Notes under the pieces: model-generated | Database searches by the model: none | What the model was told of the DNA's origin: nothing | What the model saw: only the letters and a program-made list of their open reading frames with translations | Shown here: one piece after another, positions 2,156 through 20,478 of the stretch | Layout: each line of letters opens with the position of its first letter | Position numbering within the stretch: position 1 is the stretch's first letter | Assembly (NCBI GenBank): GCA_041499035.1 | Contig: JBGQJK010000002.1 | Location: forward strand, 6,571-70,570 | Direction: 5' to 3' | Source: Patescibacteria group bacterium | GTDB taxonomy: Bacteria; Patescibacteriota; Microgenomatia; UBA8517 | Length of the DNA: 64,000 nt | Made by a program: the position numbers and the translations under genes

Positions 2156-2164
2156 AAACGAATG

Positions 2165-3500: not shown

Positions 3501-3510
3501 TCGCTTAGTG

Positions 3511-3582: not shown

Positions 3583-3588
3583 TCATTT

Positions 3589-3663: not shown

Positions 3664-3667
3664 AAGT

Positions 3668-4246: not shown

Positions 4247-4273
4247 AACCTGCTATAATTGCAGTGCCTAAAA

Positions 4274-4361: not shown

Positions 4362-4362
4362 T

Positions 4363-4444: not shown

Positions 4445-4445
4445 C

Positions 4446-5126: not shown

Positions 5127-5578
5127 TGAGGTACAATATAAGTATGAAATTATTCAACAAAAGAGCAAGATTTGAATATGAACTCACAGGAGAGGGAGTT
5201 GAGGCCGGATTGTCCCTAAAGGGAGCCGAGGCTAAATCTATCCGCGAAGGCCGGGGGGATTTGTCCAATTCTTTCGCAAAAATCATGGGTAATGAAATTT
5301 ATTTGGTCAATGCCAACATCCCGGCACAAGGGCTGGAAAAATATGACTCTACCCGCACCAGAAAACTCCTTTTGCACCACCAGGAGATACTGTCGCTAGG
5401 AACAAAAATGAAGCAAAAAAAGTTGCAAATTGTGCCTCTACGGCTGTATAATAAGGGTCGCTTAATCAAGCTCTATCTAGAGCTAGGCAAGCCTAAAAAG
5501 CAGTTTCAGAAGAAGGAGGCAATTAAGCGCCACGATATAAAGCGAGATATTGAAGGTGAATTTAAAGCTTCGCTTTAA
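5126..5578 (+). CDS. smpB: SsrA-binding protein SmpB
   Basis: 'NKRARFEYELTGE...GAEAKSIREGR' SmpB signature; immediately upstream of the tmRNA gene. Confidence 0.85.
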   Translation: MRYNISMKLFNKRARFEYELTGEGVEAGLSLKGAEAKSIREGRGDLSNSFAKIMGNEIYLVNANIPAQGLEKYDSTRTRKLLLHHQEILSLGTKMKQKKLQIVPLRLYNKGRLIKLYLELGKPKKQFQKKEAIKRHDIKRDIEGEFKASL

Positions 5579-5581
5579 ATC

Positions 5582-5942
5582 GGGGACGATCGGTTTCGAC
5601 GGGAAGCTCTTTGACAAAACGGCAAGCAGACTTTGACTCTAGGTCTTTGATAAGAGTTAAAAAACAAAAGCTACGAATTTATTCGAAGCTCCAGCCTACA
5701 ACGTAGTTTACGCTTAAGCTGGCGTCCTGAGATCTGATTCTCGATCGGGTCGACTGGGTGTAAACCATTCGAGATGCTGTTTAAGCTTTAATGATTTAAA
5801 GGTTTAAACAAAAGACAAATAAATCTTACCTTGAAATTCCTTTTTGGCTAGATAAGTTCAGGGAAAATTTAAAAACCAAATAAGCTTGTAGAAGTTTTGT
5901 TATTATGTTTTTCGGACGCGGGTTCGATTCCCGCCGTCTCCA
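5582..5942 (+). ncRNA. ssrA: transfer-messenger RNA (tmRNA, ssrA)
   Basis: 5' GGGGACGATCGGTTTCGACGGG (tRNA-like acceptor/D region), 3' GGACGCGGGTTCGATTCCCGCCGTCTCCA (T-arm plus acceptor), internal tag ORF ending ...YNVVYA-TAA. Adjacent to smpB. Confidence 0.8.
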
Positions 5943-6339
5943 CTTAAAAAATAATATTAGTTCTGAACTCTCATTTCAAAATCGTATTTTTATGCACCCT
6001 GGTGCAGGTGGTATTTATGCTAACGAGGGACATAGTATGACAGTTAACGGCAACGGGAGTAGTAATTTTCAGGGAATCCATTTTCATCATTCAGAACCTC
6101 TAACGGTAATCAAGTCAACGGCACTGCTCAGATTAAAAGGATTAATTCGCGACAACGAATCGGTTGTCGAGTTAAGAAGTTGTGGAACAGATAACAGAGG
6201 CGTTGAGGGATTCGCCGCGCGGACAGATAAAATGTTCGACAGTTATGAGCCTCACGTGTCGTTAGGCGATCTCTTTGATTCGATAAACACACTTCGCAAT
6301 TCCTCACTTTGGCCGAAGAAATAAGTATCTCGAACAAGA

Positions 6340-8241
6340 CTACTGATTCTGAATATCTAGCGAATACAGCTTGTCTCCTGTAAGAAGAATTATTTTCTTA
6401 TCAGCTTCCGAAACTACCAAGTTTATGCCTCCCGAAATTAATGAATCTTCATATTGGGCCTTATAAACACCCTTCTTATCGGTAACCACCACCCTGCTGC
6501 CTGCTTTATCAAGCAAATAAATATACTGATTATCCGGGTTGGCATAAATGGCGTCAATATTTCCAATTTCCGGAATTACACCAGAAACATTAAAGTTTTG
6601 GGGACTGCCCTGGCTGAACTTAAGCACTTTAGAGTTAGGATACAGGGCATAGATTGATCCGTCTATGGTTATCTGCAAAATATTCGAAAAATTAACATTA
6701 GTTCCTGCTGCAAGCCAATTTTGTTTATCACCAAACGAGTTCCCTGTCCCAGCATATCTATAAATTGCATTTCCGGCTTTGTCTATTACATACATATTTC
6801 CGGCAAAGGCTGATATAAGCGCATCAGATGTCCATACTTTACTGATAACCTTACTATTACCTGAATCAACTTCATAAATACCATCACTTTCAAGAACAAA
6901 GACTTTGGCTTCGTAAGCCGCCAGTGCGGAGGCCGAATTTATTACCCCGGGTCCTGCAACCACCCTGCTCTTTTTTGTGGAAAGGTCAACGCTAACTATT
7001 CGTTGTCCAGATTTATCGAGAACGTAGATAAACCCGCCCGAAAAAGCTACTATGTCGCCTTTAAACCCGGAGGAAAGCAGTGTCAAATCCAAAAACATCT
7101 GGGGCGTCTCCCGGTATTCCCCAAGAACTGCAGCCCGGCTGTCATCAATCTTTTTCTTGAGAGCGTCGATTTTAGTGTCATGTACGTTCATAGCAGTAAT
7201 TCGATTCAGTTTTTGTTCGCTGTCGGCAAACAGCTCACGGCTCCGCTCAGAACTGACACTCGCCAGGCTTATAGCCTGATCAGCCTCGCTTGTTGCCTGC
7301 GCAAGAATTCCCTGATATTTACTTTTCAAATCATTGATCTTTTTCTGACGTATGCCAAATCCGATACTTACTCCTAAAAGCACCAGAAGAATCGCCGCAA
7401 CCGTAAAAGTAAGCTTTTTGCTTTCGGGGGAAGCTTGGGGAGCCTGTTCCGCCTTTAAATAGATATTTTTTTGAGGAATTCTTTTGAAAAGCTTGGAAAC
7501 AAATTCCTGAATCTTATCTGATATCATCAACGGGTTTCTAAAATCTAGACTCAATTTGTTAAATTTTCTTGGTTCCGCGATTTCCGGACGCGCTTCTGCA
7601 AATAGTGTGTTTGCGTCTTCTTTTTCCTCAAATTTAATCACGGTTGCAGCCAAGTTTCCCTGGCTTTCTGAGCCAAGCACGATAGGACCGAACGTCTCAA
7701 TTGAATCTTCGGAAGTTTTTGCCGAAAGCGCAGCTCTAAGTATTCCGTTCGGGACCTTCTCAAAAAATGTTTTTGTCGCCAAAAGTATAACGTCGCCACT
7801 CTTGGGAAAACCCGAGGCAACAACTACCTGATCTTTTTCACTTTCCAGGATTTTTCCGAGCGAACCGTTCCGGAAAACCATTACGCCTGCCCCGCCAACC
7901 GCTACGGAATAAACAACATTTCCGACGAAAGCAGCTGCAACAATTTCGACGTCCCCCCAGGTGTGCCTGAATTCATCGGCAACTTTCTTGGTAGCATCCC
8001 TGAGAACATTGAAGGGCTTACCTGTCGGGTTGCCGTAGTATTCTTCATGGTACCTGGTTAAAAGTTCCCGTCCGGCAGCAAGTGTGTCTATACCGCTCTC
8101 TGTGTGACTGGTAGAAACTATCGCAAATAAGTGTCCCCGGAGTTTAAGCTTATCAGAATCCTCCGGTTCAAACTCATGTACTTGTGCCCACCCGGACGGC
8201 CCAGGCGCACCAGTCAACTTGGAGGCACTAGAAATTAACAT
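6340..8241 (-). CDS. transmembrane protein: degenerate PP2C-like N-domain, single TM, coiled coil, C-terminal beta-propeller-like repeats
   Basis: N-term 'IVAAAFVGNVVYSVAVGGAGVMVFRNGS' resembles the PP2C 'LYVANVGDSRAVLxRNG' core with Asp/Ser replaced by Gly. TM 'LTFTVAAILLVLLGVSIGFGI'. Five to six repeats of type 'YVLDKSGQRIVSVD / IYLLDKAGSRVVV'. Confidence 0.5.
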   Translation of the reverse strand: MLISSASKLTGAPGPSGWAQVHEFEPEDSDKLKLRGHLFAIVSTSHTESGIDTLAAGRELLTRYHEEYYGNPTGKPFNVLRDATKKVADEFRHTWGDVEIVAAAFVGNVVYSVAVGGAGVMVFRNGSLGKILESEKDQVVVASGFPKSGDVILLATKTFFEKVPNGILRAALSAKTSEDSIETFGPIVLGSESQGNLAATVIKFEEKEDANTLFAEARPEIAEPRKFNKLSLDFRNPLMISDKIQEFVSKLFKRIPQKNIYLKAEQAPQASPESKKLTFTVAAILLVLLGVSIGFGIRQKKINDLKSKYQGILAQATSEADQAISLASVSSERSRELFADSEQKLNRITAMNVHDTKIDALKKKIDDSRAAVLGEYRETPQMFLDLTLLSSGFKGDIVAFSGGFIYVLDKSGQRIVSVDLSTKKSRVVAGPGVINSASALAAYEAKVFVLESDGIYEVDSGNSKVISKVWTSDALISAFAGNMYVIDKAGNAIYRYAGTGNSFGDKQNWLAAGTNVNFSNILQITIDGSIYALYPNSKVLKFSQGSPQNFNVSGVIPEIGNIDAIYANPDNQYIYLLDKAGSRVVVTDKKGVYKAQYEDSLISGGINLVVSEADKKIILLTGDKLYSLDIQNQ

Positions 8242-8244: not shown

Positions 8245-8466
8245 TTAAAGAATTATTAGAGCAGCCAGAAAAACTAAAACCGCAAAAGCTAAATGAATAT
8301 AGCCAAGCAGGATTATCGGAGCATCGAAACCAAGCGAGAGCGTGGATGTCATTAGTCTGATCTGCCGGACCATAATCAAAGCGAACACAAGATACATTGC
8401 CAAAAGCAGAAGAGCCGCGATTTTAATCACCAGCCAAATAGAAATTCCAAAAATAGGGTTGATCAT
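8245..8466 (-). CDS. small two-TM membrane protein
   Basis: Entirely hydrophobic 73 aa; translationally coupled (ATGA overlap) with the upstream gene. Confidence 0.4.
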   Translation of the reverse strand: MINPIFGISIWLVIKIAALLLLAMYLVFALIMVRQIRLMTSTLSLGFDAPIILLGYIHLAFAVLVFLAALIIL

Positions 8467-9131
8467 TTTCTTTTATCTTTTGTAATCAGATCCTCAATAA
8501 TTTTTGCCACCTTATCAGGATTTGGCACCGCTACGAAATCAAATTCGGCAACTTCCGCGGCAGTTTGAACAAAAACGTCCCCGTAATTAAAAATCGTCCT
8601 GGCAACCCCACCCATATTATATGTAACATCCTGAATTTTATCCAAGTTGGCGTCGGAAACCTCCTTATAAATTAAGTTGTAAAAATCGACGTCGACTACT
8701 CTCATATTTGTAACTATATAAACGTTAAAAAACCAGCTCAAAAAGTTTTCGAAAGCGTATGCCAATGTAATCAAATACCAGGCCATTGTGATAACCAATT
8801 CAAACCCGACCGGAAGAGATGAAAATACACCGAAGGCCGCCATAGTTGCCGGCACAAAAAGCAGCAGTATTGTAACCAAAATCCACTTAACATTAACTAT
8901 CAGGTGTTGCCTTAAAAGCAAAACTATTTTTTCTTCCTTAGAACGGGACTCAAAATCGATATGGTCGGGATAAAAGTAAAAGGCGGACAGGGGGCTATGG
9001 GTGTGTCCGGGGAGTTTAGACTTTTCAATCTCGGTCACTGGAGACTCTTCCGGCAAAACCGATGAGGCCGGCTCCTCAGGAGCTACTGGCTTTTGAGACT
9101 CATTTTTTGGAGAAACAAACACATCCGGCAT
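8463..9131 (-). CDS. membrane protein with bPH_2 (YdbS/YdbT-like) domain
   Basis: Two TM helices followed by 'YIVTNMRVVDVDFYNLIYKEV...GDVFVQTA', a bacterial PH-like pattern. Confidence 0.45.
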   Translation of the reverse strand: MPDVFVSPKNESQKPVAPEEPASSVLPEESPVTEIEKSKLPGHTHSPLSAFYFYPDHIDFESRSKEEKIVLLLRQHLIVNVKWILVTILLLFVPATMAAFGVFSSLPVGFELVITMAWYLITLAYAFENFLSWFFNVYIVTNMRVVDVDFYNLIYKEVSDANLDKIQDVTYNMGGVARTIFNYGDVFVQTAAEVAEFDFVAVPNPDKVAKIIEDLITKDKRK

Positions 9132-9211: not shown

Positions 9212-10993
9212 TTAATGCTTCTCAATATTGAAGAGTGGTCCGACAATTTGGATGTTGCTCGGGGCTCTAAGGTTAAAGTATGTCTTAAAATCCTGACCGT
9301 CAAAATTTCGGCCGTCAATTGTAACGGTAGTTGTTTTTCCGCTTCCGAAATCAGCATTAACCGATATGTTTGAAGCACTGTCAAATGGTGTAATTCCCCT
9401 CGTAGAAAGTTCACTTTTAACTCTGCCAGCGTCCCAGGTATCAACTCCGTCGGGATTTGGTTTATCAACCTGTGTCAGATGATCCTGAGTTGACCCGTCG
9501 GCTTTGGCGAGCAAAATAATGTTTGCAAAGTCTGCAATCTCCTCGGGCTTCAGCCATGCTGTTTTGTTGTAAGAGGAACGGCTGCCCCAATCGCAGTAGA
9601 AAACCGGCGAACTTTTATCGTAGGTGCTATTTGCAAGATCGGAAAAACTGTTTATCCCACCAGGCGCATCCTTAAGCCTTTTGGTCCAACTTGTATTACT
9701 CCAGCCAATATCCCCCGATGTGTAAGCATAGCCCCCGTGTGTTGAGGAAAACCAAGCTTTTATTGGACTTCCCCCGGTAGTCATTACAATACCGCGTGTG
9801 GCGTCCACTGCAGCCTGCCATGCACCATCATTAAGTTCTTTTTTTACTACCTGGCACTGCTGGCTGGGGCAAATACTGCCTGAGCCATTATTTGTGTAAG
9901 CTAATGCGAACGACCTGGCCGCGACTGCCTGGGCTTTAAGAGCTTCCGGATTCCAGCTTGTTGGCATCTCGTATAAATGTTTAAGATAATCGTCAATGTT
10001 CCAAGTGTCGTTAAATGACTGACCAAATTCGTTGCTGCCGGTTACGTGAATGTTAATTGATTGGTTATAACCCGTTGTGTAATCGGCGTTGTAGTAAGTC
10101 TTGAGAATCGTTTCGGCATTCTGACCAGCCTCGGCCCGGCCTTTGGCTCCAAACTGGTTAAGCCCTATCCTGTTGGGCACTCCGTAGCTGAAAAACGCAT
10201 AAGCCGGGCTAAAACCGGGGTCTTTGAAGGGGTTGATATCACTACTGCATCCACCCTTCATGTTGTAAGCGGATCTTGAAAGGCCTAATGTTGCGAGCTT
10301 TGCTGCCAGGAAGGATTGCTGTTTGGCCGAAAGCGTTGCCAAATATGCGCTGGCTTTTGCAACTTCCCCCGCCAAAAAGTTTGCCTTTTCGGTTACTTGT
10401 TTTTGAGCGGCAGTCAAAGCATCTTTATTCTTCTGAAGAGTATCTTCGTCCTGCTTAAGTTTAATCAGATCAGTGGCATATTGAGCCATCGTCTGTCTGT
10501 CGGAATCCGCCGCTCTTTGCCTAAGGTTAATTTCCTGAAAAGCCTGCGAGGCCGTATCGGCAAAAATAAATGGGGTTATGGGATCATAAAGTCTTAAGAA
10601 AGTATATTGGTCTTTGGCCTTTTGATTAAAAATCTCTCTGGTAAAGGCCATTTTCTCCTCGCGCAGGTTAATATCGGCTTGGGTTTGCTTAAGTTGATCC
10701 AAAAAAGAATTTATTCTCGCCGCTAAATTTGCGAGCTGCTTTTGGAGGGCGCTAAGATCCTGTTTATTTTTTTCATTGGCGGACTGAATCGGAGCCAGAA
10801 GTTGCGGGATTCCTACGTTGTAGCACCAATCCTGGTCCCCCTGCGAAAGATCGCTGACATTTTTAGTAAGACATTCCTGGGCAGTTATGGCAAAAACCAC
10901 AGTCGTTTTTAGAATCAAAAGGCCTAATACGGCAAGGGCCGTAGTAATTAATAATTTGAAAGACCTAGAATTAAATGGAAATTGTTTGCCCAC
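9212..10993 (-). CDS. SpoIID/LytB-domain peptidoglycan-remodelling protein with N-terminal TM and coiled coil
   Basis: 'PEALKAQAVAARSFALAYT' matches the SpoIID/LytB signature (EALKAQAVAARTYAL). N-terminal TM and long Q/K/L-rich coiled coil. Confidence 0.6.
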   Translation of the reverse strand: MGKQFPFNSRSFKLLITTALAVLGLLILKTTVVFAITAQECLTKNVSDLSQGDQDWCYNVGIPQLLAPIQSANEKNKQDLSALQKQLANLAARINSFLDQLKQTQADINLREEKMAFTREIFNQKAKDQYTFLRLYDPITPFIFADTASQAFQEINLRQRAADSDRQTMAQYATDLIKLKQDEDTLQKNKDALTAAQKQVTEKANFLAGEVAKASAYLATLSAKQQSFLAAKLATLGLSRSAYNMKGGCSSDINPFKDPGFSPAYAFFSYGVPNRIGLNQFGAKGRAEAGQNAETILKTYYNADYTTGYNQSINIHVTGSNEFGQSFNDTWNIDDYLKHLYEMPTSWNPEALKAQAVAARSFALAYTNNGSGSICPSQQCQVVKKELNDGAWQAAVDATRGIVMTTGGSPIKAWFSSTHGGYAYTSGDIGWSNTSWTKRLKDAPGGINSFSDLANSTYDKSSPVFYCDWGSRSSYNKTAWLKPEEIADFANIILLAKADGSTQDHLTQVDKPNPDGVDTWDAGRVKSELSTRGITPFDSASNISVNADFGSGKTTTVTIDGRNFDGQDFKTYFNLRAPSNIQIVGPLFNIEKH

Positions 10994-11076
10994 GGCAATC
11001 CATTATATCAAGTGAAACATAGAAGGGGTTTGTTATTTGGAGTCACAAAAGTTAGAATAAATATATATCTAGATAA

Positions 11077-11661
11077 ATGAAAAGAATAGTTTTGTTATTA
11101 GGTCTTTTTGGGTTAATTTTCTTTTTGCTTCCGTATAAAGTTTTGGCAGGTCCTCAATGCTCTACTAAAGGCGGAAGCTGCTCAACCGCATGCAGCATCA
11201 GCGATACCCCTTCAGGACCTTTAGACTGCCCAACCCAAAATGGAGGTAGAGGGGCACCCATTCAACAAGTTTGTTGTGTACCTCAGTCATCAGGCGGTGG
11301 TAGCAGTGGTGGATCTACTAGCGGCAGTTCTCCAGTAAATATACAAGGACGCTGCGCAATCACAGCAATCGATACAGCAATAGGCTGCATTCCTGTCTTA
11401 AACAGCGATAACGGAACGGCATTTATGGGCTTTATCCTTAGATGGGCCGTGGGCATCGGGGGCGGAATCGCTTTTCTTTTAATTCTTTACGGAGGCTTTA
11501 TGATAATGACTTCCTCGGGTAACCCTGAGCGACTTAAAGCGGGACAGGAACTTCTAACTTCGGCAATTGGAGGAATAATTCTTCTTATTTTCTCTGTATT
11601 CCTGCTTAAGGTTATTGGAATTGACATACTCGGTCTTGGATCTTATGGTTTCGGGAAGTAA
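11077..11661 (+). CDS. pilin-like two-TM protein fused to N-terminal Cys-rich secreted domain (paralog 1 of array)
   Basis: Signal peptide, 10 Cys in 'GPQCSTKGGSCSTACS...CCVPQ', Gly/Ser linker, then C-terminal 'GGFMIMTSSGNPERLKAGQELLTSAIGGIILLIF' matching the array motif. Confidence 0.5.
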   Translation: MKRIVLLLGLFGLIFFLLPYKVLAGPQCSTKGGSCSTACSISDTPSGPLDCPTQNGGRGAPIQQVCCVPQSSGGGSSGGSTSGSSPVNIQGRCAITAIDTAIGCIPVLNSDNGTAFMGFILRWAVGIGGGIAFLLILYGGFMIMTSSGNPERLKAGQELLTSAIGGIILLIFSVFLLKVIGIDILGLGSYGFGK

Positions 11662-11669
11662 AAATAGAC

Positions 11670-12005
11670 ATGTTATTGGCACAAAACTTAGACGCAATTC
11701 AAAGCGGAGGAATTCCAGGTTTTACAATCCCTAATGGCGGGCTTGCATCTTCCGGTGTTGGTACGCTAATTACATTATTAATCCCGTATATATTTGAGGC
11801 CGCGGCACTTTTACTTTTAATTTACTTCCTACTTGGGGGGTTACAGCTTATGACGTCGAGGGGAGACCCTAAAGGGATACAAGCTGCTCAGGGAAAAATT
11901 GTCAACGCTTTAATTGGTTTTGCAATTATTCTCCTCGCGGGCTTTGTAGTGCTACTATTAGGGAGATTATTAAGAATAAATGTTTTTACAGGATTAATCG
12001 TTTAA
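11670..12005 (+). CDS. pilin-like (VirB2/TrbC-like) small two-TM protein, paralog 2
   Basis: 'LLGGLQLMTSRGDPKGIQAAQGKIVNALIGFAIILLAGFVV' shares the conserved motif with its neighbours. Confidence 0.5.
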   Translation: MLLAQNLDAIQSGGIPGFTIPNGGLASSGVGTLITLLIPYIFEAAALLLLIYFLLGGLQLMTSRGDPKGIQAAQGKIVNALIGFAIILLAGFVVLLLGRLLRINVFTGLIV

Positions 12006-12010
12006 AAAAA

Positions 12011-12301
12011 ATGGATATAAATAGTATTTTTGGCTCTCCTCTTACCCAACTTACGAATGTGGCAGGGCTAGTTACCATTTTTTTAAACGCGATCTTTGTT
12101 ATTGCCGGTCTTATTCTACTTTTTTACTTTATTTTGGGGGGAATAGGAATGATAAATAGCGCCGGGAAAAACGACCCGCGGGCAGCGGAACAGGCGAAAC
12201 AGACTGTTACTTCGGCTCTTATTGGGTTTGTTGTTGTAATTGCTGCCTACTGGATAGTAAAATTAACAGGAACGCTTTTAGGGATTCAAAATTTAATATG
12301 A
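12011..12301 (+). CDS. pilin-like small two-TM protein, paralog 3
   Basis: 'ILGGIGMINSAGKNDPRAAEQAKQTVTSALIGFVVVIAAYWIV'. Confidence 0.5.
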   Translation: MDINSIFGSPLTQLTNVAGLVTIFLNAIFVIAGLILLFYFILGGIGMINSAGKNDPRAAEQAKQTVTSALIGFVVVIAAYWIVKLTGTLLGIQNLI

Positions 12302-12630
12302 CCAACCCATTCGGATCAGTAAAGATGCCTAATACCGCTCTTGGAACGGATCCTGGCTTAGCTATCGGAAAAATAGTCCAGCTTGTAATTTGGGTTTTAC
12401 TCATAAGTGCTGGTGTTTACGCACTTATTAATTTTATTTTAGCCGGCTATGCATTTATGTCTGCTGGGGATGATGCCAAAAAAATCGAGGGTGCCTGGGC
12501 AAAAATCTGGCAGACAGCACTTGGTCTGGCAGTTGCAGCTGGCGCCTTTGTGCTGGCTGCAATTTTTGGCCAGCTAATTTTTAACGATCCTACAATTCTT
12601 TTCAATCCAACTATCCCAGCCTTACCATAA
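12298..12630 (+). CDS. pilin-like small two-TM protein, paralog 4 (divergent)
   Basis: 'ILAGYAFMSAGDDAKKIEGAWAKIWQTALGLAVAAGAFVLA'; ATGA overlap with the previous gene. Confidence 0.45.
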   Translation: MTNPFGSVKMPNTALGTDPGLAIGKIVQLVIWVLLISAGVYALINFILAGYAFMSAGDDAKKIEGAWAKIWQTALGLAVAAGAFVLAAIFGQLIFNDPTILFNPTIPALP

Positions 12631-12635
12631 ATAGA

Positions 12636-13001
12636 ATGAAAAATTTATTATCGCAAGTCAGTTTTGGTACATTTAAGGGCATCGGATCTGGAAATCTATC
12701 TAATTCAACCGGTGGCATAGCAACCCTGGCCAGTTTTATTACATCTGTAATTGGTGTCATGACAATAGTTGCAGTTATCTGGTTTATTTTTGTGTTTATC
12801 ACCGGTGCAATCGGGATAATTGCAGCAGGAGGAGACAAAGGCGCTCTCGAGAATGCCAGAAAAAGGATCACTACAGGACTAATCGGTTTAGTGGTCGTCA
12901 TTATTGCAACTTTTGTGATTGATTTGATCGGATATTTGCTCGGCTTTCCTTCCAACGGAATTTTAAATATTGTTAACCTGTTTAATACTCTACCCAAATA
13001 A
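12636..13001 (+). CDS. pilin-like small two-TM protein, paralog 5
   Basis: 'ITGAIGIIAAGGDKGALENARKRITTGLIGLVVVIIATFVI'. Confidence 0.5.
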   Translation: MKNLLSQVSFGTFKGIGSGNLSNSTGGIATLASFITSVIGVMTIVAVIWFIFVFITGAIGIIAAGGDKGALENARKRITTGLIGLVVVIIATFVIDLIGYLLGFPSNGILNIVNLFNTLPK

Positions 13002-13005
13002 ATAA

Positions 13006-13323
13006 ATGATAAAAAATCCGGTACTAGGGGGCTTGGGTGCGACGGCCGGCATCACCTTTTTCCAAACATTCTTTGGTAAGCTTGTAGCGGTTGCCCTTAT
13101 AGCAGGATCCGTAATTTTTCTTTTTATGCTGATTACTGGGGCAATACAGTGGATTTCTTCCGGTGGCGACAAGCAGGCACTTGAAAATGCAAAAAGCAAG
13201 GTGACAAACGCGATCGTCGGAATTATAATTCTGTTCGCTATTTTTGCAGTAATAAATTTTGTCAGCTCTTTCTTTGGAAATATCCCAATATTAAACGCGC
13301 CTCTAAATCCCGTTACCCCTTGA
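13006..13323 (+). CDS. pilin-like small two-TM protein, paralog 6
   Basis: 'ITGAIQWISSGGDKQALENAKSKVTNAIVGIIILFAIFAVI'. Confidence 0.5.
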   Translation: MIKNPVLGGLGATAGITFFQTFFGKLVAVALIAGSVIFLFMLITGAIQWISSGGDKQALENAKSKVTNAIVGIIILFAIFAVINFVSSFFGNIPILNAPLNPVTP

Positions 13324-13362
13324 CACGGCGTTTTAAAAAGGCCAATAATATAAAATACAGAT

Positions 13363-13701
13363 ATGGGGAACTCTCTGCTCGCGCAAATAAACTTAAAGCC
13401 GGATGCTAATTCGGGCTTCAGTAACCTGGGAGGCTATACTTTACCCGGAATTATATCCGCTCTTATAAAAGGGGCGTTGGTTGTGGCAGCAATAGTTTTC
13501 TTCTTTATACTCGTCCTCGGCGGAATAAAATGGATTGCGTCGGGTGGCGATAAAGCGGCAACAGAGGGTGCAAGAAATCAAATTACGGCGGCCCTAATCG
13601 GCCTTGTAATAGTCTTTGCTGCTTGGGCAATAGTTTCCTTAATCAATACTTTCTTTAACGTAAACATTTTCTCCTTGACACTTCCTCAAGTTAGCGGTTA
13701 A
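13363..13701 (+). CDS. pilin-like small two-TM protein, paralog 7
   Basis: 'VLGGIKWIASGGDKAATEGARNQITAALIGLVIVFAAWAIV'. Confidence 0.5.
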   Translation: MGNSLLAQINLKPDANSGFSNLGGYTLPGIISALIKGALVVAAIVFFFILVLGGIKWIASGGDKAATEGARNQITAALIGLVIVFAAWAIVSLINTFFNVNIFSLTLPQVSG

Positions 13702-13746
13702 AACGGGCTTGCTCAATCTTGCCCCCTAGTCTAGAATTGTCTTTAT

Positions 13747-14022
13747 ATGGACCCTGCGCGTATAACTGACCTCCAAACAGTCTTTGTTAATGTGGTAAAG
13801 GTTGCTATTGCTGCAGCCGGAATAGCTTTGTTTGTCATGCTTCTTATTGGTGGATTTAAATATATAACCTCGGGTGGGGATCCTAAGGCAACTGAGGGCG
13901 CGCAAAGAACTATCACTTATGCAATCGGCGGACTAGTCCTTATTCTTGCGGCCTACTTAATACTTTTACTCATACGAACCATAACAGGGGCTCAAGTGAC
14001 CAACTTTACCGTGGTCCAATAA
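13747..14022 (+). CDS. pilin-like small two-TM protein, paralog 8
   Basis: 'LIGGFKYITSGGDPKATEGAQRTITYAIGGLVLILAAYLIL'. Confidence 0.5.
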   Translation: MDPARITDLQTVFVNVVKVAIAAAGIALFVMLLIGGFKYITSGGDPKATEGAQRTITYAIGGLVLILAAYLILLLIRTITGAQVTNFTVVQ

Positions 14023-14042: not shown

Positions 14043-16571
14043 ATGAAACGCTTTCTGCCCATTTTCGCAACCCTCTTCGGGCTTTCCTTTTTTTTTCCAA
14101 AAGCTTCAAAAGCCCAATACACACCTTTAAACGATGTCCCAATCCCCCAGATTCACTTTCCCTGTGACAAACAAACTCAACCCGAATTTGCTTCTTTAAG
14201 ACCTTACCAGGCAGCAGCCTGCGGAGACGCTGACAAAGCACTCTACTGCAGCAACGATCTTATATTCCTGGAGACTTTTAACAGCTTTCCGGAATGTGGA
14301 GGCCAAGCGCCCGCAGGGGAGGGAAAATTTATTTGCAACACAAATAAATTTATTCCAAACCATAATTTAATTGTAGATTTGGCCAATAGCGATCTCCCCA
14401 TCCTTGGAAATACCGAGTTAACTAAGGACAGCATCAACTCGACCGATAAAATTAGTGATGCGGGAAAAATGAATGAGTATGCAAGCTGGTACCTTAACGG
14501 AACTCTTAATAGAGCGGAGTACGGACAAATTGACCCTACCCAGATTGCCGATTATTCGGGACCAATTCAAAAAGTCATGCCCCAAGTAATTCTTGAGGCC
14601 GATAGAATAGGCACAATCGCCTCAGCTTCAGCAATGACAACATATATTCCGGAAAATGACAACGGCGGTACTGCGGCCCCACAAGCCACTACTGAGCCCC
14701 AAAACCATAACCAGATAGTTGTTTGCTATAAGAAACAGGCCCAACTTATTCCGCCCATCATCACAAATTTTTTTGGGCTTGGAGCAGTAGGGCTAGGCAA
14801 GGCACTTCCCGGGGATTGTTACGATGGGGCTGGTCACATGACAGATGGGCTAAGCATACTGAGACTTGAAAGTTGGGATAAATCCAGTCCTACTGTTGAT
14901 GTTGCCGGCATTGCCAGCTGGCTTCTTAAAATTTTTCCTCCGAATATTGTGTCTATACTTACAAGTAGCACTGCCATCCTCGATCGCTGGCCATATAAAT
15001 TTCCCCCTCTCCCTTGGTCGGATAAAAACGGTCAGCCTTTTTCTAGTCCGGACGCATATCAAAAGGCTTATAACGAATGGCGGGGGCAACTCTGTGCTTA
15101 TATTTCATTCCCAATACTGGGAACCAAGTTATTTTGTGGCGGAATTCCGGGCGTAACAAATAATGATTTTGCAGACCTTTTTCCCTTTATTCCCCTCGGG
15201 AACACTGTTGATAAACACGGCTCCGAAACCGCATATATAGCGGAAATTCAGCCACTGGGAGAGACCCAGATTGCTGACCCTTCGTACGATGTACCAAAAA
15301 ATGCTCCCCTTTGGTTCTCACACACCGAAGAAGTAATGAACATGTCAAAGTTCTTAAACTCCAGTTATACCCCCCTCGACTGCACAGTAACTAACGGTAA
15401 ACAAACCTGTCAGCCACTTGCCAGTGTAGCGGAACCTAAAACTACGGAGGCGAATGTCTGCAACGTAGTAAATGTAAGAACAAATTCGGGAGATAACCTC
15501 TTCCCCGGCCAAACACATGGAGTCGTGGTCCCCAATGTTCACTACACGATCACACAAGTCCCGTGCGAGAAAAAAATAGTAATACAGACGATCGGAAAAC
15601 CCCCTAATGAAAAAACAGTAAGACGAACCGTTATCACTTGCGATGCCGAAATAAATATAACAATCCCCACAATTACAAAGAGTCCATCACTTGACCCGAT
15701 ATTCCAAAGCACGGTTGCTTATTCCGGGTCTACATTCAGGAAGATCTATCCCAAAGTGGAAACGGGTGCCCCTGTAAATTGTATTGCGGATATTCCGGGT
15801 TCAACCGGAGTTGATTACACGGGAACAGATAACGTACCCGCGGGTGGAAACAGCTCGTTTAAATATAAAAATCCTGCGCTAGGTTCAAACAATGCCTCCG
15901 AACTATATTTTCCACACCTCGGTTCAGTCTATGACTACTTTCTTAAAGGCATTCAAACCGCTCTACGCCCGCAAGGATTCGGAGCCCCAACACCAATAAG
16001 CGGAAAGTACTGCAGTCCGACAGTACCAACCCAGTGCAATGCCAACGTCCCCGATTCAGCCGTCTCCAGCAAATTTCTTGGCGCTTTCAAAACCAACTTT
16101 ATACTCGTTGCCGACAGGTGGACTCTTGACTGCCCCGGGCCGCAATACAATTTGGCTGCTCAATGTTACAACTACGTTGTCAGCGAGGCCCAGAAAGCCG
16201 GTGTTAATCCTGCGTTTGCTTTGTCTATTTGGCTTCATGAATCAGATGCAAGCAACTATTGTCATGGCGGCCTCTCTACTCAGGATTTTGGACAAAATGT
16301 TGCCAGCGAGTATCAAAATATAGTTGCTCAGTTAACTGGATTCTTGGCTATGGCAAAGCAAAAGCTCTGCAACGGCGTTCCGGGATTCCCTGAACCCATG
16401 GCCGGTTGGCTAAGTAGATATAAAAGTAGTTCCGGTTCATGTAATCCGGCAGACTCTGATGCAATGAGCTATTACCCTGAAATTCGGGATACATCCTGGG
16501 GAGTGCTAACTAATTGTGTGAAAGGTACCAAATTCGGAATTACCTGGCCCACCGATATGAGTTGTCCCTAA
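14043..16571 (+). CDS. large secreted Cys-rich protein (842 aa), possible lysozyme-like C-terminal region
   Basis: Signal peptide 'MKRFLPIFATLFGLSFFFPKASKA', >30 Cys. C-terminal 'YNYVVSEAQKAGVNPAFALSIWLHESDASNY' resembles the catalytic E-S region of lysozyme-like/SLT folds; this is weak. Confidence 0.45.
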   Translation: MKRFLPIFATLFGLSFFFPKASKAQYTPLNDVPIPQIHFPCDKQTQPEFASLRPYQAAACGDADKALYCSNDLIFLETFNSFPECGGQAPAGEGKFICNTNKFIPNHNLIVDLANSDLPILGNTELTKDSINSTDKISDAGKMNEYASWYLNGTLNRAEYGQIDPTQIADYSGPIQKVMPQVILEADRIGTIASASAMTTYIPENDNGGTAAPQATTEPQNHNQIVVCYKKQAQLIPPIITNFFGLGAVGLGKALPGDCYDGAGHMTDGLSILRLESWDKSSPTVDVAGIASWLLKIFPPNIVSILTSSTAILDRWPYKFPPLPWSDKNGQPFSSPDAYQKAYNEWRGQLCAYISFPILGTKLFCGGIPGVTNNDFADLFPFIPLGNTVDKHGSETAYIAEIQPLGETQIADPSYDVPKNAPLWFSHTEEVMNMSKFLNSSYTPLDCTVTNGKQTCQPLASVAEPKTTEANVCNVVNVRTNSGDNLFPGQTHGVVVPNVHYTITQVPCEKKIVIQTIGKPPNEKTVRRTVITCDAEINITIPTITKSPSLDPIFQSTVAYSGSTFRKIYPKVETGAPVNCIADIPGSTGVDYTGTDNVPAGGNSSFKYKNPALGSNNASELYFPHLGSVYDYFLKGIQTALRPQGFGAPTPISGKYCSPTVPTQCNANVPDSAVSSKFLGAFKTNFILVADRWTLDCPGPQYNLAAQCYNYVVSEAQKAGVNPAFALSIWLHESDASNYCHGGLSTQDFGQNVASEYQNIVAQLTGFLAMAKQKLCNGVPGFPEPMAGWLSRYKSSSGSCNPADSDAMSYYPEIRDTSWGVLTNCVKGTKFGITWPTDMSCP

Positions 16572-16619: not shown

Positions 16620-18185
16620 ATGTCCAAGCCGCTCAAAAAAATTGTATTTTCTTTTTTAACTGCACTCGTCCTTCTTTTTTCTTTTGCTCCATTTTTTAGA
16701 GCAAAAGCTGCAATCCCACCGGGAGGAATAAATGTCGGCATTGACCCAAGTAATCTTTGGAGTCATACGTGGTATGCCGAGGAGAATCCGTTTGCCTGGT
16801 ATCAAAAAGTTTACGACGATTCTATATCCCCAACCAGCGAGATTTTTGGAGAACGCTATACGGCCGCACAAGTCCAGTGGGTTATTTACGGGCTTTTCTC
16901 CTTCTTCTGGAACTTTATACCTGGAAACCCGCAACTGACAACCTGCGCTATTAGCGGGGATATCAGCAGCTGCCAAACCTTGCTTCAAAAACTCCAAAGT
17001 GCTATCAAAATAGGTGATAGTAGCGGGCCGACGCCGGCATCAACTACGGCATCTATATTTACTTTTGCTGGCCAGAATCCGATTTCAGGAGTTTATTATT
17101 TTAAAAACCTGATCGGGAAATTTTCCCTAATATCCGAGGTTCACGCCCAGGGGTTTGGCTACACAAACGCAGCAAATTCAATTGTAGGTATTTGGAGAGT
17201 TACCAGAAATATTAGCTACGGCTTTATGGTATTGGCCATAATCATTTTTGCTTTTATGATTATGTTTAGAGTAAAAATCAATCCCCAGGTAGTTATTACA
17301 GTTCAACTCGCAATACCGAGACTGGTATTCGCATTAATCCTCATTACTTTTTCATATGCAATCGCAGGGTTCGCGATCGATTTAATGTATGTAACAATCG
17401 GGCTTTTAGCAGTATTAATAAACGGGGCTCAGTTAACAAGCGAGACACCTATCCAGCTGTTCCAAAACTTTGTCTCGAGCAATAGTTTTGTATTATTATA
17501 TAACTACTGGATACATTTATTGGTCGCAAGTATTGTTGCCACGGTTTCGCCCGGTGGAGGATTCGGGCTTGGAATTCTTCTTGTCCTATTCGCAATAATT
17601 GCTATTCTTGCAGTTATATGGTGGTCCCTCAAAATTGTTTGGATGGTAATTAAAACGTTTGTGTCAATTATTCTGACGATCGTCGTTGGACCGTTAGAAA
17701 TAATGCTCGGGACAGTCACTGAATCTACAGGTTTTGGCGCGTGGCTTAAAAGACTGATATCTTATTTGGCGGTTTATCCTATGATGTGTTTAATGTTTTT
17801 TCTGGCATTTTTCTTCCTCAATCAGGGCGGGGACACAGCCGGATTCGGAGGGACAATTCCGTTTAACCCGGCAACAAATTTCATAGGTCCTAATTCGTGG
17901 GTTCCGCCTATGTCATTTTTAACGGGAAACGGACAAAGGTTAATATGGATTCTTGTAAGCTTTGTTATTTTCAGCGAGATAACAAAAGTCGCAGAAATGG
18001 CACAAAAATTTATTGAGGGTAAGCCGTGGGAGTATGGAACTGCTGTTGGAGAAGTGAGACAGGGTGCAAAGAACGTTGGTCAGTCCGCAACCGACTTCGC
18101 AAGACTATATGCCTCCACTAAGGCTATCGGAGGAACTGCACAAGGAGTAGTCAACGCTCTAAAGTGGCTAGCATTTATGCCGTAG
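16620..18185 (+). CDS. VirB6/TrbL-like polytopic membrane protein (type IV secretion inner-membrane component)
   Basis: Signal/TM, ~150-aa extracytoplasmic N-domain, then 6-8 TM helices rich in aromatic and Gly residues. Its position upstream of a VirB4-like ATPase fits VirB6/TrbL architecture. Confidence 0.5.
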   Translation: MSKPLKKIVFSFLTALVLLFSFAPFFRAKAAIPPGGINVGIDPSNLWSHTWYAEENPFAWYQKVYDDSISPTSEIFGERYTAAQVQWVIYGLFSFFWNFIPGNPQLTTCAISGDISSCQTLLQKLQSAIKIGDSSGPTPASTTASIFTFAGQNPISGVYYFKNLIGKFSLISEVHAQGFGYTNAANSIVGIWRVTRNISYGFMVLAIIIFAFMIMFRVKINPQVVITVQLAIPRLVFALILITFSYAIAGFAIDLMYVTIGLLAVLINGAQLTSETPIQLFQNFVSSNSFVLLYNYWIHLLVASIVATVSPGGGFGLGILLVLFAIIAILAVIWWSLKIVWMVIKTFVSIILTIVVGPLEIMLGTVTESTGFGAWLKRLISYLAVYPMMCLMFFLAFFFLNQGGDTAGFGGTIPFNPATNFIGPNSWVPPMSFLTGNGQRLIWILVSFVIFSEITKVAEMAQKFIEGKPWEYGTAVGEVRQGAKNVGQSATDFARLYASTKAIGGTAQGVVNALKWLAFMP

Positions 18186-18192: not shown

Positions 18193-20478
18193 CTAAGCTT
18201 CAAGGCCTTTATTGGTAGCATCTGTGGGGAGTCCCTTGGCTTGGTCTGGAGGGATAATTCCGATTCTTCCTATTCTATAACGTATCCTGTCTATGGCTGA
18301 TACTACCTTGTTTGTCATAACCCCTCTATCTTTGGTTGCTACTTTATCTGCATCTTGCGCCAGCCACTCCTTATACTGAGGGAGTGATCTTATTCCATCC
18401 CAAAAAGCTAGCACCAACTTTTTTTTATAATTCCTTACCTCATCCGTAACGTATTTATCTGTAGCTTTTTTGTTAGCTTTGGCTTGTTCCACTTTTCTTC
18501 TGTCTTTTTTATCCGCTTCGGTTAAGGCTGCCTCGCCTCCTTCTCTAATTCCATTATATATCCCCCTGAAGCGGCCGTTAAACACAACCTGCGCGTTTAG
18601 TGCAATCCCCATATTGGCGGCGAATTTTTCCCAAAAAGTTTTTTCTTTAAGTTCCCGTATATCCCAATCTGTTCTCATCATGTACTGGAAAAGTCCGATT
18701 TTTTCCCGACCGGCAATAAATATTCCAAGGGCTGCCTGATTATATGTTTTTGGATGAAGACCCTCCCACTGCAGCTCACCAAGATGAAATGCTCTTTCTG
18801 CGGGAAGTTCTACCATTTTTCTAAGAACGGGGTCATATCCCTGTCCTTTTCTATACCCCCATCTCATCTCGTCAAATGACCTTTTCCCAACATCTACAAA
18901 CTTCATTTTTATCTTACTCTCGACAAATTGCCTATTACCATCCTTATCCAAATCTTCCACCTCTTTTACCGTCCCGTCATCATTAAGCTCGTGCCCCTTA
19001 CCTGTCCAACTTTTAAAATAGGGAACCGCAAACCTATCAGGATATTTTTGGAAAGCGCCATCGGGTCCAAAACCTCTGATTTCAGGTTTTAAGAACCTAT
19101 AGACCTGAGTAAAAATATTGGGGCCAATTACTTTAATTCTATCGCAGGAAGTCATTCCCCCCATCTCATGGGATATATAGTTACCTTCCGGACGATCAAG
19201 TTCTTTATCATATTCTCTATGGTAAACCTGACCCCCAAGGTCGGAAGCCATTCCGGTTACTCTAAGCATCTCCCAAGCGATAAAGCGGGCATCCCGCGCC
19301 TCTTTTTTAGCCATGTTACCTTTAGCCTCGCTTCCACCCCCTATAAACCTTTCAATTTGTTCAAAAACATGCTCTGCGTCGTTCCACGAAGACTCAACCA
19401 AAATGTTTCCTTTCTCCGTAAGGAGCCCTCTAATGCCTTTGTGTTTTTTATCAGGATCATTAAAGTCGACCGGCTCTTTGTTCCATGACCACGGCTCGCC
19501 AATCCATTTAACCAAAGTAGCATTTAATGTTCTTCCTTGCCTTTCTTCGGGTCTTAAGAAAAGGTCATCTACTTCCTGATCCGAAACCTTAAATAAAAAC
19601 TTAAAACCGGGTCGTGTGACTAAATCTTTAAACTGCTCATAATTTTCGGACTGTGCAGCAAGTTCCAGACATTGGAGCGAAACACTCATTGCGTCCCCAA
19701 ACTCGTGGCCCTTTCTAAATTCCGCTCCGCCTTCTGTTTTTGTAAGAATGCTCTTCCTATCTACCCCTTCTACCCCAGTAAATCTACCCTCGGCGTCGCA
19801 AAGAATTCTCATCGCTTCATGGGTAAGGCTGCCCATAAAATAAAATTGGACTAGGCCCTCCAGATTTTCCGTCTGGTTCCAGACATATCTAGCCATTTTA
19901 ACCATATCTTCTCTGGCAGTCATTTCACCATCAACTCTGGTGAGGACCTCCGCAAGGGCTTTGCGCTGTTCGTCCGTACCGGGTTCGTAAGACACCGTCT
20001 GGCCAATTATCGACTCCTGCTTGATCTTTCCATCCTGATCCTGAACGACCCTCCTTTCCGTCTCCGCCCAAACAACAGTAGAGGTATAAGCATATCCCGG
20101 AAAAGAAAAGGTTGCCTCCCGCTGTTGGTCTCCATTTTCATCTACAACACTTTTGTAAGTAAGGTACCCCATATCCTGAAGATCCTGAAGCGTTTCGTTC
20201 ATTACAGAAATTCTGCCTTCCAGATTAGCTTTCACTTGATCCATACTCCATTCGGCAACTGTGCCGTCCGGCTTAAGGATCATATTTTCAAAGATGGCCA
20301 TATACGACCTACTGGCGTCGATTAATTGTTTGGGGTCTACCGAACGTTCTATGACCTCAATATTTGGAAGTCCTTCTCTAAGATGTCTTGCAGCTTCGGG
20401 TTGTTTATTTTTGTCGTCTTTACCTTGTTCCGTACTAGCACCAGTCGGGAGTTCAGTCATACAAAAATTGTAGCACAA
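18193..20478 (-). CDS. hypothetical large soluble protein (761 aa), opposite strand within T4SS-like locus
   Basis: Long ORF with no TM segment, P-loop or motif I recognise; highly charged. Confidence 0.4.
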   Translation of the reverse strand: MCYNFCMTELPTGASTEQGKDDKNKQPEAARHLREGLPNIEVIERSVDPKQLIDASRSYMAIFENMILKPDGTVAEWSMDQVKANLEGRISVMNETLQDLQDMGYLTYKSVVDENGDQQREATFSFPGYAYTSTVVWAETERRVVQDQDGKIKQESIIGQTVSYEPGTDEQRKALAEVLTRVDGEMTAREDMVKMARYVWNQTENLEGLVQFYFMGSLTHEAMRILCDAEGRFTGVEGVDRKSILTKTEGGAEFRKGHEFGDAMSVSLQCLELAAQSENYEQFKDLVTRPGFKFLFKVSDQEVDDLFLRPEERQGRTLNATLVKWIGEPWSWNKEPVDFNDPDKKHKGIRGLLTEKGNILVESSWNDAEHVFEQIERFIGGGSEAKGNMAKKEARDARFIAWEMLRVTGMASDLGGQVYHREYDKELDRPEGNYISHEMGGMTSCDRIKVIGPNIFTQVYRFLKPEIRGFGPDGAFQKYPDRFAVPYFKSWTGKGHELNDDGTVKEVEDLDKDGNRQFVESKIKMKFVDVGKRSFDEMRWGYRKGQGYDPVLRKMVELPAERAFHLGELQWEGLHPKTYNQAALGIFIAGREKIGLFQYMMRTDWDIRELKEKTFWEKFAANMGIALNAQVVFNGRFRGIYNGIREGGEAALTEADKKDRRKVEQAKANKKATDKYVTDEVRNYKKKLVLAFWDGIRSLPQYKEWLAQDADKVATKDRGVMTNKVVSAIDRIRYRIGRIGIIPPDQAKGLPTDATNKGLEA

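Follow-up and report, generated by a model that had tools for sequence, protein, structure and literature searches.

The DNA stretch considered here, referred to below as the window, comprises 64,000 nucleotides of a Patescibacteria group bacterium (assembly GCA_041499035.1, contig JBGQJK010000002.1, positions 6,571 to 70,570 of the forward strand). At 11077-14022 it carries eight consecutive plus-strand open reading frames (ORFs), named here pil1 to pil8, whose products are paralogous proteins with two transmembrane (TM) helices. The array lies inside a chromosomal type IV secretion system (T4SS) cluster of the monoderm type in a Woesebacteria/Microgenomatia genome. We consider it probable that the eight genes provide a fixed set of different pilin-type subunits of the PF18895 family for this T4SS, with pil7 as the major subunit and the other seven as minor ones. 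Judged by their comparison across related genomes, the eight paralogs are eight ancient classes that have been kept as strict one-to-one positional orthologs under purifying selection. The genes of the array are the following:

pil1, 11077-11661, plus strand: 194 aa; signal peptide, variable Cys-rich N-terminal ectodomain, Gly/Ser linker, conserved TAIGC motif and pilin hairpin.
pil2, 11670-12005, plus strand: 111 aa; class 2, the fastest-evolving; PF18895 score 27.7 bits; positional orthologs in 58 loci.
pil3, 12011-12301, plus strand: 96 aa; class 3; PF18895 score 39.1 bits, the top Pfam score of the eight; positional orthologs.
pil4, 12298-12630, plus strand: 110 aa; class 4, with the motif LAGYAFMSAGDDxKK...GAWAxIWQT; its first 4 nt overlap the end of pil3.
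pil5, 12636-13001, plus strand: 121 aa; class 5; PF18895 score 23.3 bits; positional orthologs.
pil6, 13006-13323, plus strand: 105 aa; class 6; PF18895 score 26.2 bits; its 3' end or stop codon carries the -35 box of the pil7 promoter.
pil7, 13363-13701, plus strand: 112 aa; class 7, the most conserved; PF18895 score 35.1 bits; proposed major pilin.
pil8, 13747-14022, plus strand: 91 aa; class 8, the shortest, with hardly any N-terminal tail; PF18895 score 35.7 bits; positional orthologs.

The ORF calls, made over the whole window, agree with the original prediction, which had placed at these coordinates eight same-strand genes for related two-TM proteins. The predicted size of about 100 aa fits seven copies and fails for pil1, and the predicted separation of 4-40 bp was nearly right, the actual spacings from pil1 to pil8 being 8, 5, -4 (an ATGA overlap), 5, 4, 39 and 45 nt. 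Every copy contains a polar loop of about 14 residues with a hydrophobic segment of 25-35 residues on either side, and a common core can be aligned across all eight proteins with a mean column identity of 30%; pil2 to pil8 are 12-27% identical to pil1. The motif that had been described as shared, GGxx(W/Y/M)I(S/T)SGGD(K/P)...AxExAxxxI, occurs literally only in pil7 and pil8, is off at one residue in pil6 and is looser in pil5 (GGIKWIASGGDK, GGFKYITSGGDP, GAIQWISSGGDK, GAIGIIAAGGDK); it is also looser in pil1 to pil3 and different in pil4 (AGYAFMSAGDDA). No further match to the family was found among the ORFs of at least 45 aa of the window, and the antisense ORFs that overlap the array (e.g. 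12611-12997) are without support.

At the family level, the original prediction could not assign the motif to any named family, but such a family exists under the Pfam name PF18895 (T4SS_pilin). Seven copies match it with E values of 7e-10 to 7e-5; pil1 (28.1 bits), pil2, pil3, pil7 and pil8 score above its gathering threshold of 26.6 bits, pil6 and pil5 are placed just under it, and the Pfam scan gave no PF18895 match for pil4. The two-helix TM hairpin of about 70 residues that characterizes the family is present in all eight, each with its two hydrophobic segments, and the orthologs of the pil proteins carry precomputed PF18895 matches. When the eight ortholog classes were compared with hhalign, probabilities of 88-99.9% were obtained with the exception of class 1 against class 4 (35%); class 4 reached 95-98% against classes 2, 3, 5, 6, 7 and 8, class 5 reached 99.5-99.6% against classes 6 and 7, and classes 6 and 7 reached 99.9% with each other. 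By these profile scores the paralogy of the eight copies is far beyond chance, and it is through profile-profile comparison only that pil4 is joined to the family. A profile built from the eight proteins recovered 3,545 relatives among 8,000 scored candidates, nearly all of them annotated as PF18895, with pil7 orthologs making up most of the family-wide search matches. The PF18895-type family is very large: the family profile yielded 87,556 matches at E <= 1e-3 among 1.84 billion cluster representatives. The profile check proposed with the original prediction led to PF18895 and not to a holin or bacteriocin-immunity family, and the proposal of T4SS pilin-type two-helix proteins is borne out by these matches together with the T4SS gene cluster in which the array is found.

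Two other families were considered. NCBIfam NF045849 (Mbov_0395 pilin-like) is weakly similar to seven of the eight copies (E values of 1e-6 to 4e-3), with a top score of 28.1 bits for pil3 and 10.8-24.6 bits for the others against a cutoff of 40 bits, so that the pil proteins are not members. It is the only other named family with recurrent weak similarity to them, and it resembles them in being a small pilin-like protein of a T4SS of the mating-pair formation (MPF)-FATA type in wall-less or monoderm bacteria (mycoplasma integrative and conjugative elements), but the mycoplasma protein is single-copy. An identity as type IV pilins, of type IV pili or type II secretion systems, was rejected: the class III signal (a short basic leader ending in G, followed by F/M-x-x-x-E) is missing in all eight proteins, each of which has two TM helices.

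The top matches of the family profile are "polypilins", single polypeptides that contain 2-17 tandem pilin hairpins. Examples (among P0121, P0122 and P0123) have 552 aa with six hairpins, 1147 aa with 11 and 1775 aa with 17 matched stretches; P0121, at positions 1777-3435 of locus L092, is a verified uninterrupted ORF of 552 aa with six hairpins that is located inside another pilin gene array. The linkers of the polypilins fit a topology with the N- and C-termini outside. When polypilins of distant lineages were compared with the eight classes, the assignments fell to the generic classes 8, 2 and 7 and no order could be read.

Evidence for a fixed set of subunits comes from the comparison of related genomes. 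In three of them (L005-L007), eight pilin genes are found between the same flanking genes as in the window, and in BLASTP searches among the four genomes the best match was the positional one in 96 of 96 cases, with identities of 45-81%. The comparison was extended to 79 loci from species-representative genomes, which were fetched by similarity to the copy-7 family and whose ORFs were classified with eight position-specific hidden Markov models (HMMs). The order 1-2-3-4-5-6-7-8 is present in 58 of the 81 scanned loci, most of the others being cut by contig ends, and the margin of the class HMM over the second-best class is at least 8 bits in all 464 assignments. Deviations in copy number are limited to an extra class 1, and to an extra class 7 with class 6 missing. 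Each class keeps its own diagnostic motifs, and, as means per class, the orthologs share 42-64% identity with the copies in the window. Among species-representative genomes, the records with the closest loci are titled Candidatus Woesebacteria, Microgenomates or Patescibacteria; four other contigs that carry the array (L001-L004) are identical over the compared region.

Mean pairwise identity among orthologs is highest in class 7 (63%), second highest in class 4 (57%) and lowest in class 2 (43.5%). The copy at 12298-12630, pil4, had been described as strongly diverged in the motif; its motif does differ, but there is no decay in a class that ranks second in conservation and whose orthologs are 60-64% identical in three genomes. 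In the same loci, identity to the window is 64% for pil7, 59% for pil4, 62% for SmpB and 68% for TrsD, against 32% and 36% for the 842-aa and 521-aa proteins encoded downstream of the array. Thus, pil7 and pil4 evolve about as slowly as the housekeeping protein SmpB and far more slowly than these two neighbours, and rapid evolution at this locus lies outside the pilins. As an indication in the same direction, dN/dS (the ratio of nonsynonymous to synonymous substitution rates) ranges from 0.02 to 0.17 in the pil genes and is about 0.02 in pil7, in two close genome pairs with dS of about 1-2.4. The original prediction had offered two ideas for the eight divergent copies, a multi-subunit fibre or antigenic/host-range variation. 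Of the two, the comparative data favour the fibre, and variation is disfavoured by eight ancient classes that are kept one-to-one in 58 loci under purifying selection and change more slowly than the large secreted neighbours.

A second line of evidence is provided by promoter-like elements, of which three were recognized:

11030-11058, plus strand: promoter-like TTGTTA-17-TAGAAT in the 83-nt divergent region between the SpoIID gene and pil1; 9/12 matches; candidate for pil1 to pil6.
13320-13349, plus strand: near-consensus sigma-70-type promoter TTGACA-18-AATAAT; 11/12 matches; ends 13 nt before the pil7 ATG.
13709-13737, plus strand: second promoter-like element, TTGCTC-17-TAGAAT, in the pil7-pil8 spacer.

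The site upstream of pil7 stands out across the related arrays. An exact TTGACA-N17/18-nAnnnT, also described as TTGACA-N17/18-(A/G)ATAAT, precedes pil7 in 56 of 59 arrays, and a promoter score of at least 10/12 is reached upstream of pil7 in 95% of arrays and upstream of any other pil gene in at most 7%. The -35 box lies inside the pil6 coding sequence in 46 arrays and outside it in 10, and because of these 10 arrays the conserved thing at this position is read as a DNA signal and not as a peptide. The site upstream of pil1 is weakly conserved (at least 9/12 in 37% of arrays). Of the 59 arrays, 41 have TTGnnn-N16-18-TAnA[AC]T upstream of pil8, compared with 0-6 of 59 at other positions. The spacer between classes 7 and 8 is consistently longer, with a median of 49 nt, and a search in it for a conserved terminator or attenuator hairpin found none. 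From this arrangement we infer three nested transcription units in which class 7 would be expressed at the highest level.

Regarding topology, the two-helix hairpin of the original prediction is confirmed by the two hydrophobic segments of all copies and by the AlphaFold2 (AF2) model of pil7, a helical hairpin with helices at 27-59 and 64-98 and a predicted local distance difference test (pLDDT) score of 80, above 90 in the core. A signal-peptide-like N-terminus is found in class 1 in 48 of 59 orthologs and in the other classes in 0-2 of 59. Cysteines occur in class 1 only (median 8, mostly in even numbers) and are absent from the other classes. The class 1 region before the conserved TAIGC motif varies from 13 to 223 residues, and its conservation is 0.29 in the N-tail against 0.78-0.83 in the core. 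In all classes the density of lysine plus arginine peaks in the loop, which is the best conserved segment of each class or close to the top (0.62-0.89), and the tails are the least conserved segments (0.29-0.59; 0.70 for the class 6 C-tail). The N- and C-termini are probably outside, with TM1 running from out to in and the loop in the cytoplasm: the N-terminus is placed outside because class 1 has an exported, disulfide-rich N-domain, and the loop in the cytoplasm because of the pil1 signal peptide and Cys-rich ectodomain and of the lysine plus arginine maximum. On the same grounds, the periplasmic loop that had been assumed earlier is probably wrong. The propilins of the VirB2/TraA type likewise have both termini outside and a cytoplasmic loop in the membrane.

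Taken together, the following model can be proposed. Each pil protein would be inserted into the cytoplasmic membrane as a helical hairpin with outward termini and a basic cytoplasmic loop. The secretion machine (VirB4, TrsD, the PrgI/VirB3-like protein, a VirB6-like platform and the SpoIID and CHAP wall hydrolases) would then extract the subunits from the membrane and stack them as a tubular filament or conduit across the wall, which the SpoIID and CHAP enzymes would open. As the copy with its own near-consensus promoter and the highest conservation, pil7 would supply the bulk of the structure, and pil1 to pil6 and pil8 would be low-copy specialised subunits for priming, tip, base or adaptor functions. 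The disulfide-rich hypervariable ectodomain of pil1 would be displayed outside as a candidate host-contact element. The structure would probably serve an epibiotic lifestyle, through exchange or uptake of material or delivery of effectors, rather than conjugation, because no relaxase or coupling protein is encoded nearby. By analogy, the polypilins suggest that several hairpins can work side by side with both termini outside, and a tube of 8.6 nm by 61 nm seen by cryo-electron tomography between a Saccharibacterium and its host (PMC11880426) shows that the phylum has a structure of suitable calibre. The division into one abundant subunit and conserved low-copy priming or capping paralogs, as modelled for pil7 versus pil1-6 and pil8, is functionally analogous to type IV pili and type II secretion pseudopili, which differ in fold and assembly machine and whose class III signal the pil proteins lack. 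A stronger version is put forward tentatively, namely that the eight classes are obligate, non-interchangeable blocks of one heteromeric filament or conduit, with pil7 as major subunit, seven minor subunits specialised by position and pil1 as a variable subunit that bears an adhesin, whose composition was fixed before the Woesebacteria radiation and whose subunit ratio is hard-wired by the internal promoter. If true, this would be the first heteropolymeric pilus of the VirB2 type and the first pilus built by a monoderm-type T4SS.

Several observations weigh against a set of pilin subunits with pil7 as the major one. Pili are not known from other T4SSs of the Gram-positive type. The essentiality of upstream array genes observed by transposon sequencing (Tn-seq) in Southlakia epibionticum (PMC10633639) could be a polar effect. 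The promoter calls are consensus matches only, and promoter rules are not established for Patescibacteria; the dN/dS values are indicative only, resting on two usable pairs with dS near saturation; and the choice of loci by pil7 similarity inflates the apparent conservation of pil7 and limits the comparison to one clade. Finally, no sequence or profile link to classical conjugative pilins was found. None of the eight proteins matches PF04956 (TrbC/VirB2) at E <= 1 in the Pfam scan; each class and the pooled family gave hhalign probabilities of 0.3-5% against six authentic plasmid VirB2/TrbC sequences, and A. tumefaciens VirB2 taken singly gave no more than 5% either; the pil7-family profile found no pilin among PDB sequences; and fold searches with the pil7 model returned generic helical hairpins only and no conjugative pilins.

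The original prediction of a VirB2/TrbC-type pilin is therefore upheld as regards a T4SS pilin-type hairpin and not as regards a direct sequence link to VirB2/TrbC. The hhalign alignment with VirB2/TrbC is topologically in register without being significant, and a distant kinship of PF18895 pilins with VirB2/TrbC is plausible because some other PF18895 members also match PF04956. Since homology cannot be demonstrated, the pil proteins are filed as PF18895 members that work like VirB2 and not as members of the VirB2 family. Like VirB2, TrbC and TraA (PF04956; T-pilus, F-pilus), they are small helix-loop-helix proteins encoded beside VirB3, VirB4 and VirB6 homologues, with both termini predicted outside and a basic loop. 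Conjugative pili of known structure have the loop facing the lumen and the termini at the surface, a layout matched by the conserved loop and variable termini of the pil proteins. VirB2/TrbC proteins have a long N-terminal signal peptide that is cut at an AxA↓Q-type site, whereas seven of the eight pil proteins lack a long cleavable leader; in addition, eight distinct conserved subunits replace a single one here, the host is monoderm, and VirB5, VirB7, VirB9 and VirB10 were not found.

Classes 2-7 tend to start with a short M-x-x-L-L-A-Q (pil2, pil5 and pil7, at 11670, 12636 and 13363, and their orthologs). This string resembles the end of a VirB2/TrbC leader with its AxA↓Q cleavage site, with no hydrophobic leader ahead of it, and similar "...(V/Y)(H/A)AQ..." strings are present at hairpin junctions of the fused proteins P0133 and P0159. 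The M-x-x-L-L-A-Q N-terminus may be a relic or a processing site.

Among the alternatives, the one that survives best, although we regard it as unlikely, is that the eight proteins build no extended pilus but a short cell-associated hetero-oligomeric rod, ring or channel, a "stalk" of the translocon that spans membrane and wall. Such a structure would suit a monoderm T4SS, a kind not known to make pili, and a fixed set of eight is typical of a complex of defined stoichiometry; for the fused proteins with 2-17 hairpins, too, a ring or bundle is no less suitable an arrangement than a helical polymer. However, only one class has a strong promoter of its own, which suggests that this subunit is needed in much greater amounts than the rest, as it would be for a polymer; the 61-nm tube between a Saccharibacterium and its host has the width of a conjugative pilus, and the family is enormous (87,556 cluster representatives) and highly expressed-looking.

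Less probable still is that the eight genes are interchangeable variants, that is, each could act as the major pilin, singly or in changing combinations, so that the filament surface would vary for different host strains or evade recognition by host or phage. This reading was proposed for the VirB2 arrays of Bartonella and Anaplasma and has been suggested for Patescibacteria (PMC12102498). The arrays of Bartonella and Anaplasma phagocytophilum likewise consist of several tandem VirB2-type genes in a non-conjugative T4SS for host interaction, and PMC12102498 cites them as cases of antigenic or host-range variation in which copies turn over by lineage, but the copies described here are ancient, one-to-one orthologous and under purifying selection. 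Paralogs only 12-27% identical, with predicted external N- and C-tails as their least conserved parts, are what such variation might leave behind, and extra copies of class 1 or class 7 do occur in some genomes; yet positional orthology is one-to-one in 58 loci, turnover restricted to single lineages is limited to classes 1, 6 and 7, and the class-specific motifs are kept. The slower evolution than that of the secreted neighbours, the dN/dS of 0.02-0.17 and the dedicated strong promoter at one copy only point in the same direction, and the scoring of all six pilins of S. epibionticum as essential speaks against redundancy. The ORF, Pfam, promoter and terminator scans, which included no dedicated repeat search, came upon neither inverted repeats nor a recombinase nor silent cassettes.

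It is very improbable that the array encodes secreted cargo, i.e. Sec-exported subunits of a multi-subunit effector or toxin released by the T4SS in the manner of the pertussis toxin ptx/ptl system. An array of small proteins flanked by T4SS genes does resemble ptx/ptl (PMC7427843), and pil1 has a signal peptide, but seven of the eight proteins do not, two long hydrophobic helices dominate all eight, as in integral membrane rather than soluble proteins, and PF18895 is matched. The weakest alternative, unrelated small membrane proteins (holins, bacteriocin immunity proteins or transporter accessory proteins) that sit beside a T4SS by chance, finds some echo in weak sub-threshold Pfam matches (e.g. 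enterocin, MgtC, OAD_gamma) and in orthologs named "TRAP transporter small permease" in some sources, and is in effect refuted by membership in a pilin family and by conserved synteny, all such Pfam matches having E >= 0.017, far under the cutoffs, the T4SS genes being syntenic in all related loci examined, and phage, bacteriocin or transporter genes not being adjacent.

Pilin arrays in Patescibacteria have already been published (PMC12102498, PMC10633639, PMC12857230), and in this respect the array of the window is one more case of a known kind and not in itself a discovery. Quinonero-Coronel et al. (2025, PMC12102498) described 441 arrays of 2-11 VirB2-like genes in 383 assemblies, commonest in Microgenomatia and Saccharimonadia, often near dnaA and with a mean identity within the array of 25% (maximum 54%), and suggested that this variety aids adaptation to different hosts. 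In S. epibionticum, the six PF18895 genes SEML1_0014-0019 were each scored essential by Tn-seq (GD/ES/ES; Wang et al., PMC10633639 supplement). In TM7x, McLean et al. (2020, PMC7427843) read the array as Sec-secreted, pertussis-toxin-like subunits. A 2024 perspective considered the role of the Patescibacteria T4SS "completely unknown" (PMC11665869), and a 2025 review called a pilus made by it "an intriguing possibility", a speculative one (PMC12857230). The features by which the published arrays are recognized are found here: tandem PF18895 genes near a Patescibacteria-type virB4 with TrsD and PrgI, on the chromosome and near dnaA, with no relaxase in the window and with low identity within the array. 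Like those of S. epibionticum ML1 (SEML1_0014-0019), N. lyticus TM7x and the 441 surveyed arrays, it consists of tandem divergent PF18895 copies (about 25% identity), and the surrounding T4SS cluster is chromosomal, MPF-FATA-like, close to dnaA and devoid of a relaxase, and includes VirB4, TrsD and PrgI; unlike them, it is the eight-member Woesebacteria version. A term search of the main text of the 2025 survey did not find the strict orthology of the eight classes by position, an internal promoter reserved for one class, a class with signal peptide and cysteines, a class invisible to Pfam, or a VirB6-like platform in Microgenomatia. What is new here is the order of the octet, the pil7 promoter, the signal-peptide/Cys-rich class, the Pfam-invisible class and a VirB6-like platform in Microgenomatia.

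These systems are important because much of bacterial diversity belongs to the Patescibacteria, which live attached to other microbes, and because no T4SS before theirs had been shown to be essential for its own carrier. A fixed octet with a promoter dedicated to one member predicts a heteromeric structure of defined stoichiometry, as opposed to the "variation for different hosts" of the literature, and it allows a candidate major subunit (class 7) and a candidate host-contact subunit (class 1) to be named, together with the VirB6-like platform.

The genes of the surrounding T4SS cluster are listed below:

8245-8466, minus strand: two-TM protein of 73 aa, DUF5657 (PF18901); adjoins a bPH_2-domain protein (8463-9131) and a 633-aa protein (6340-8241).
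9212-10993, minus strand: SpoIID-domain protein, 593 aa, membrane-anchored coiled coil; PF08486, E = 4e-15 (peptidoglycan-cleaving); divergent from the array and in place in 56 of 58 loci.
14043-16571, plus strand: 842-aa secreted protein with a signal peptide, 20 nt after pil8; on the same strand downstream in 53 of 58 loci, with 32% identity.
16620-18185, plus strand: 521-aa polytopic membrane protein with a signal peptide, about five hydrophobic segments and a VirB6-like predicted fold; syntenic in 49 of 58 loci.
18193-20478, minus strand: 761-aa cytoplasmic protein, encoded midway through the T4SS cluster in the reverse orientation.
20584-21627, plus strand: PrgI/VirB3-like protein (PF12666).
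21632-22324, plus strand: TrsD-like protein (NF041427).
22321-24186, plus strand: VirB4 ATPase; NF045971 (CD1110-family), 368.6 bits (cutoff 325); PF19044.
24189-27038, plus strand: 949-aa membrane protein with two TM-like segments and a C-terminal CHAP domain (peptidoglycan hydrolase); PF05257, 25.4 bits, under the cutoff of 26.

The PrgI, TrsD and VirB4 genes are located 6.5-8.3 kb downstream of the array on the same strand, and synteny between the array and T4SS genes holds in every related locus examined. VirB6 is the proposed docking and assembly platform for pilins, and the 521-aa protein is a candidate for this function. It has no Pfam or NCBIfam match, but its AF2 model (pLDDT 77, from a 68-sequence alignment) retrieved TrwI/VirB6 chains of the R388 stalk (7o3v, 8rtd, 8rt9) as the top seven Foldseek matches in the PDB, with E values of 6e-3 to 0.37, probabilities of 0.89-1.00 and TM-scores on the target of 0.39-0.44. 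With moderate confidence, the model points to a VirB6-like subunit missed by sequence profiles. The gene family has 1,213 relatives at E <= 1e-5 and is probably the missing VirB6 of Microgenomatia, a group in which the 2025 survey found VirB6 homologues scarce and suspected extreme divergence (PMC12102498). The 842-aa protein, for which Pfam, NCBIfam and PDB searches gave no match, could be a VirB1- or VirB5-like partner; by eye, its C-terminal region "...AFALSIWLHESDASNYC..." recalls the E-S catalytic motif of lytic transglycosylases. A PDB sequence search with the 949-aa CHAP protein was empty. The 73-aa, bPH_2 and 633-aa proteins keep their place next to the array in over 50 of the 58 loci and may be part of the same system; the 73-aa DUF5657 protein is not detectably related to the pilins and was never matched by the class HMMs.

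A tblastn search (E <= 1e-5) of the 58 related loci found no homolog of the 761-aa protein, which also matched no family or PDB entry. In L005-L007 a gene for 650-906 aa occupies the same place and strand, and the position looks like a hypervariable slot. At the far end of the cluster, a Big_5-domain ORF (26933-27727, plus strand) has a listed GTG start that overlaps the end of the CHAP gene by about 100 nt; its true start is probably a downstream Met ahead of its TM segment.

The dnaN and dnaA genes lie on the minus strand at 27711-30430, with four DnaA boxes at 28874-28992 and two at 30371-30429, and the minimum of the cumulative GC skew falls at 28-30 kb. The origin of replication, oriC, is likely to be in this region, about 15 kb from the array, and such closeness matches the published placement of Patescibacteria T4SSs. 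No relaxase or coupling protein is encoded in the 64-kb window, the rest of which is housekeeping, and Pfam scans showed no phage, bacteriocin or transporter genes next to the array.

Two minor observations can be added. Many public third-party annotation (TPA) metagenome bins that contain the Woesebacteria-type array with its flanks (L010, L012, L014, L016 and about 35 other loci) are named "uncultured Gammaproteobacteria bacterium" in their records or, in one case, "Alphaproteobacteria"; the proteobacterial titles of these array-bearing bins are evidently wrong. The window also contains an RNA gene cluster at 2164-5943, with four tRNA-Ser genes, two tRNA-Arg genes and a tmRNA gene (5582-5943, tag ATNLFEAPAYNVVYA) that directly follows smpB (5126-5578).

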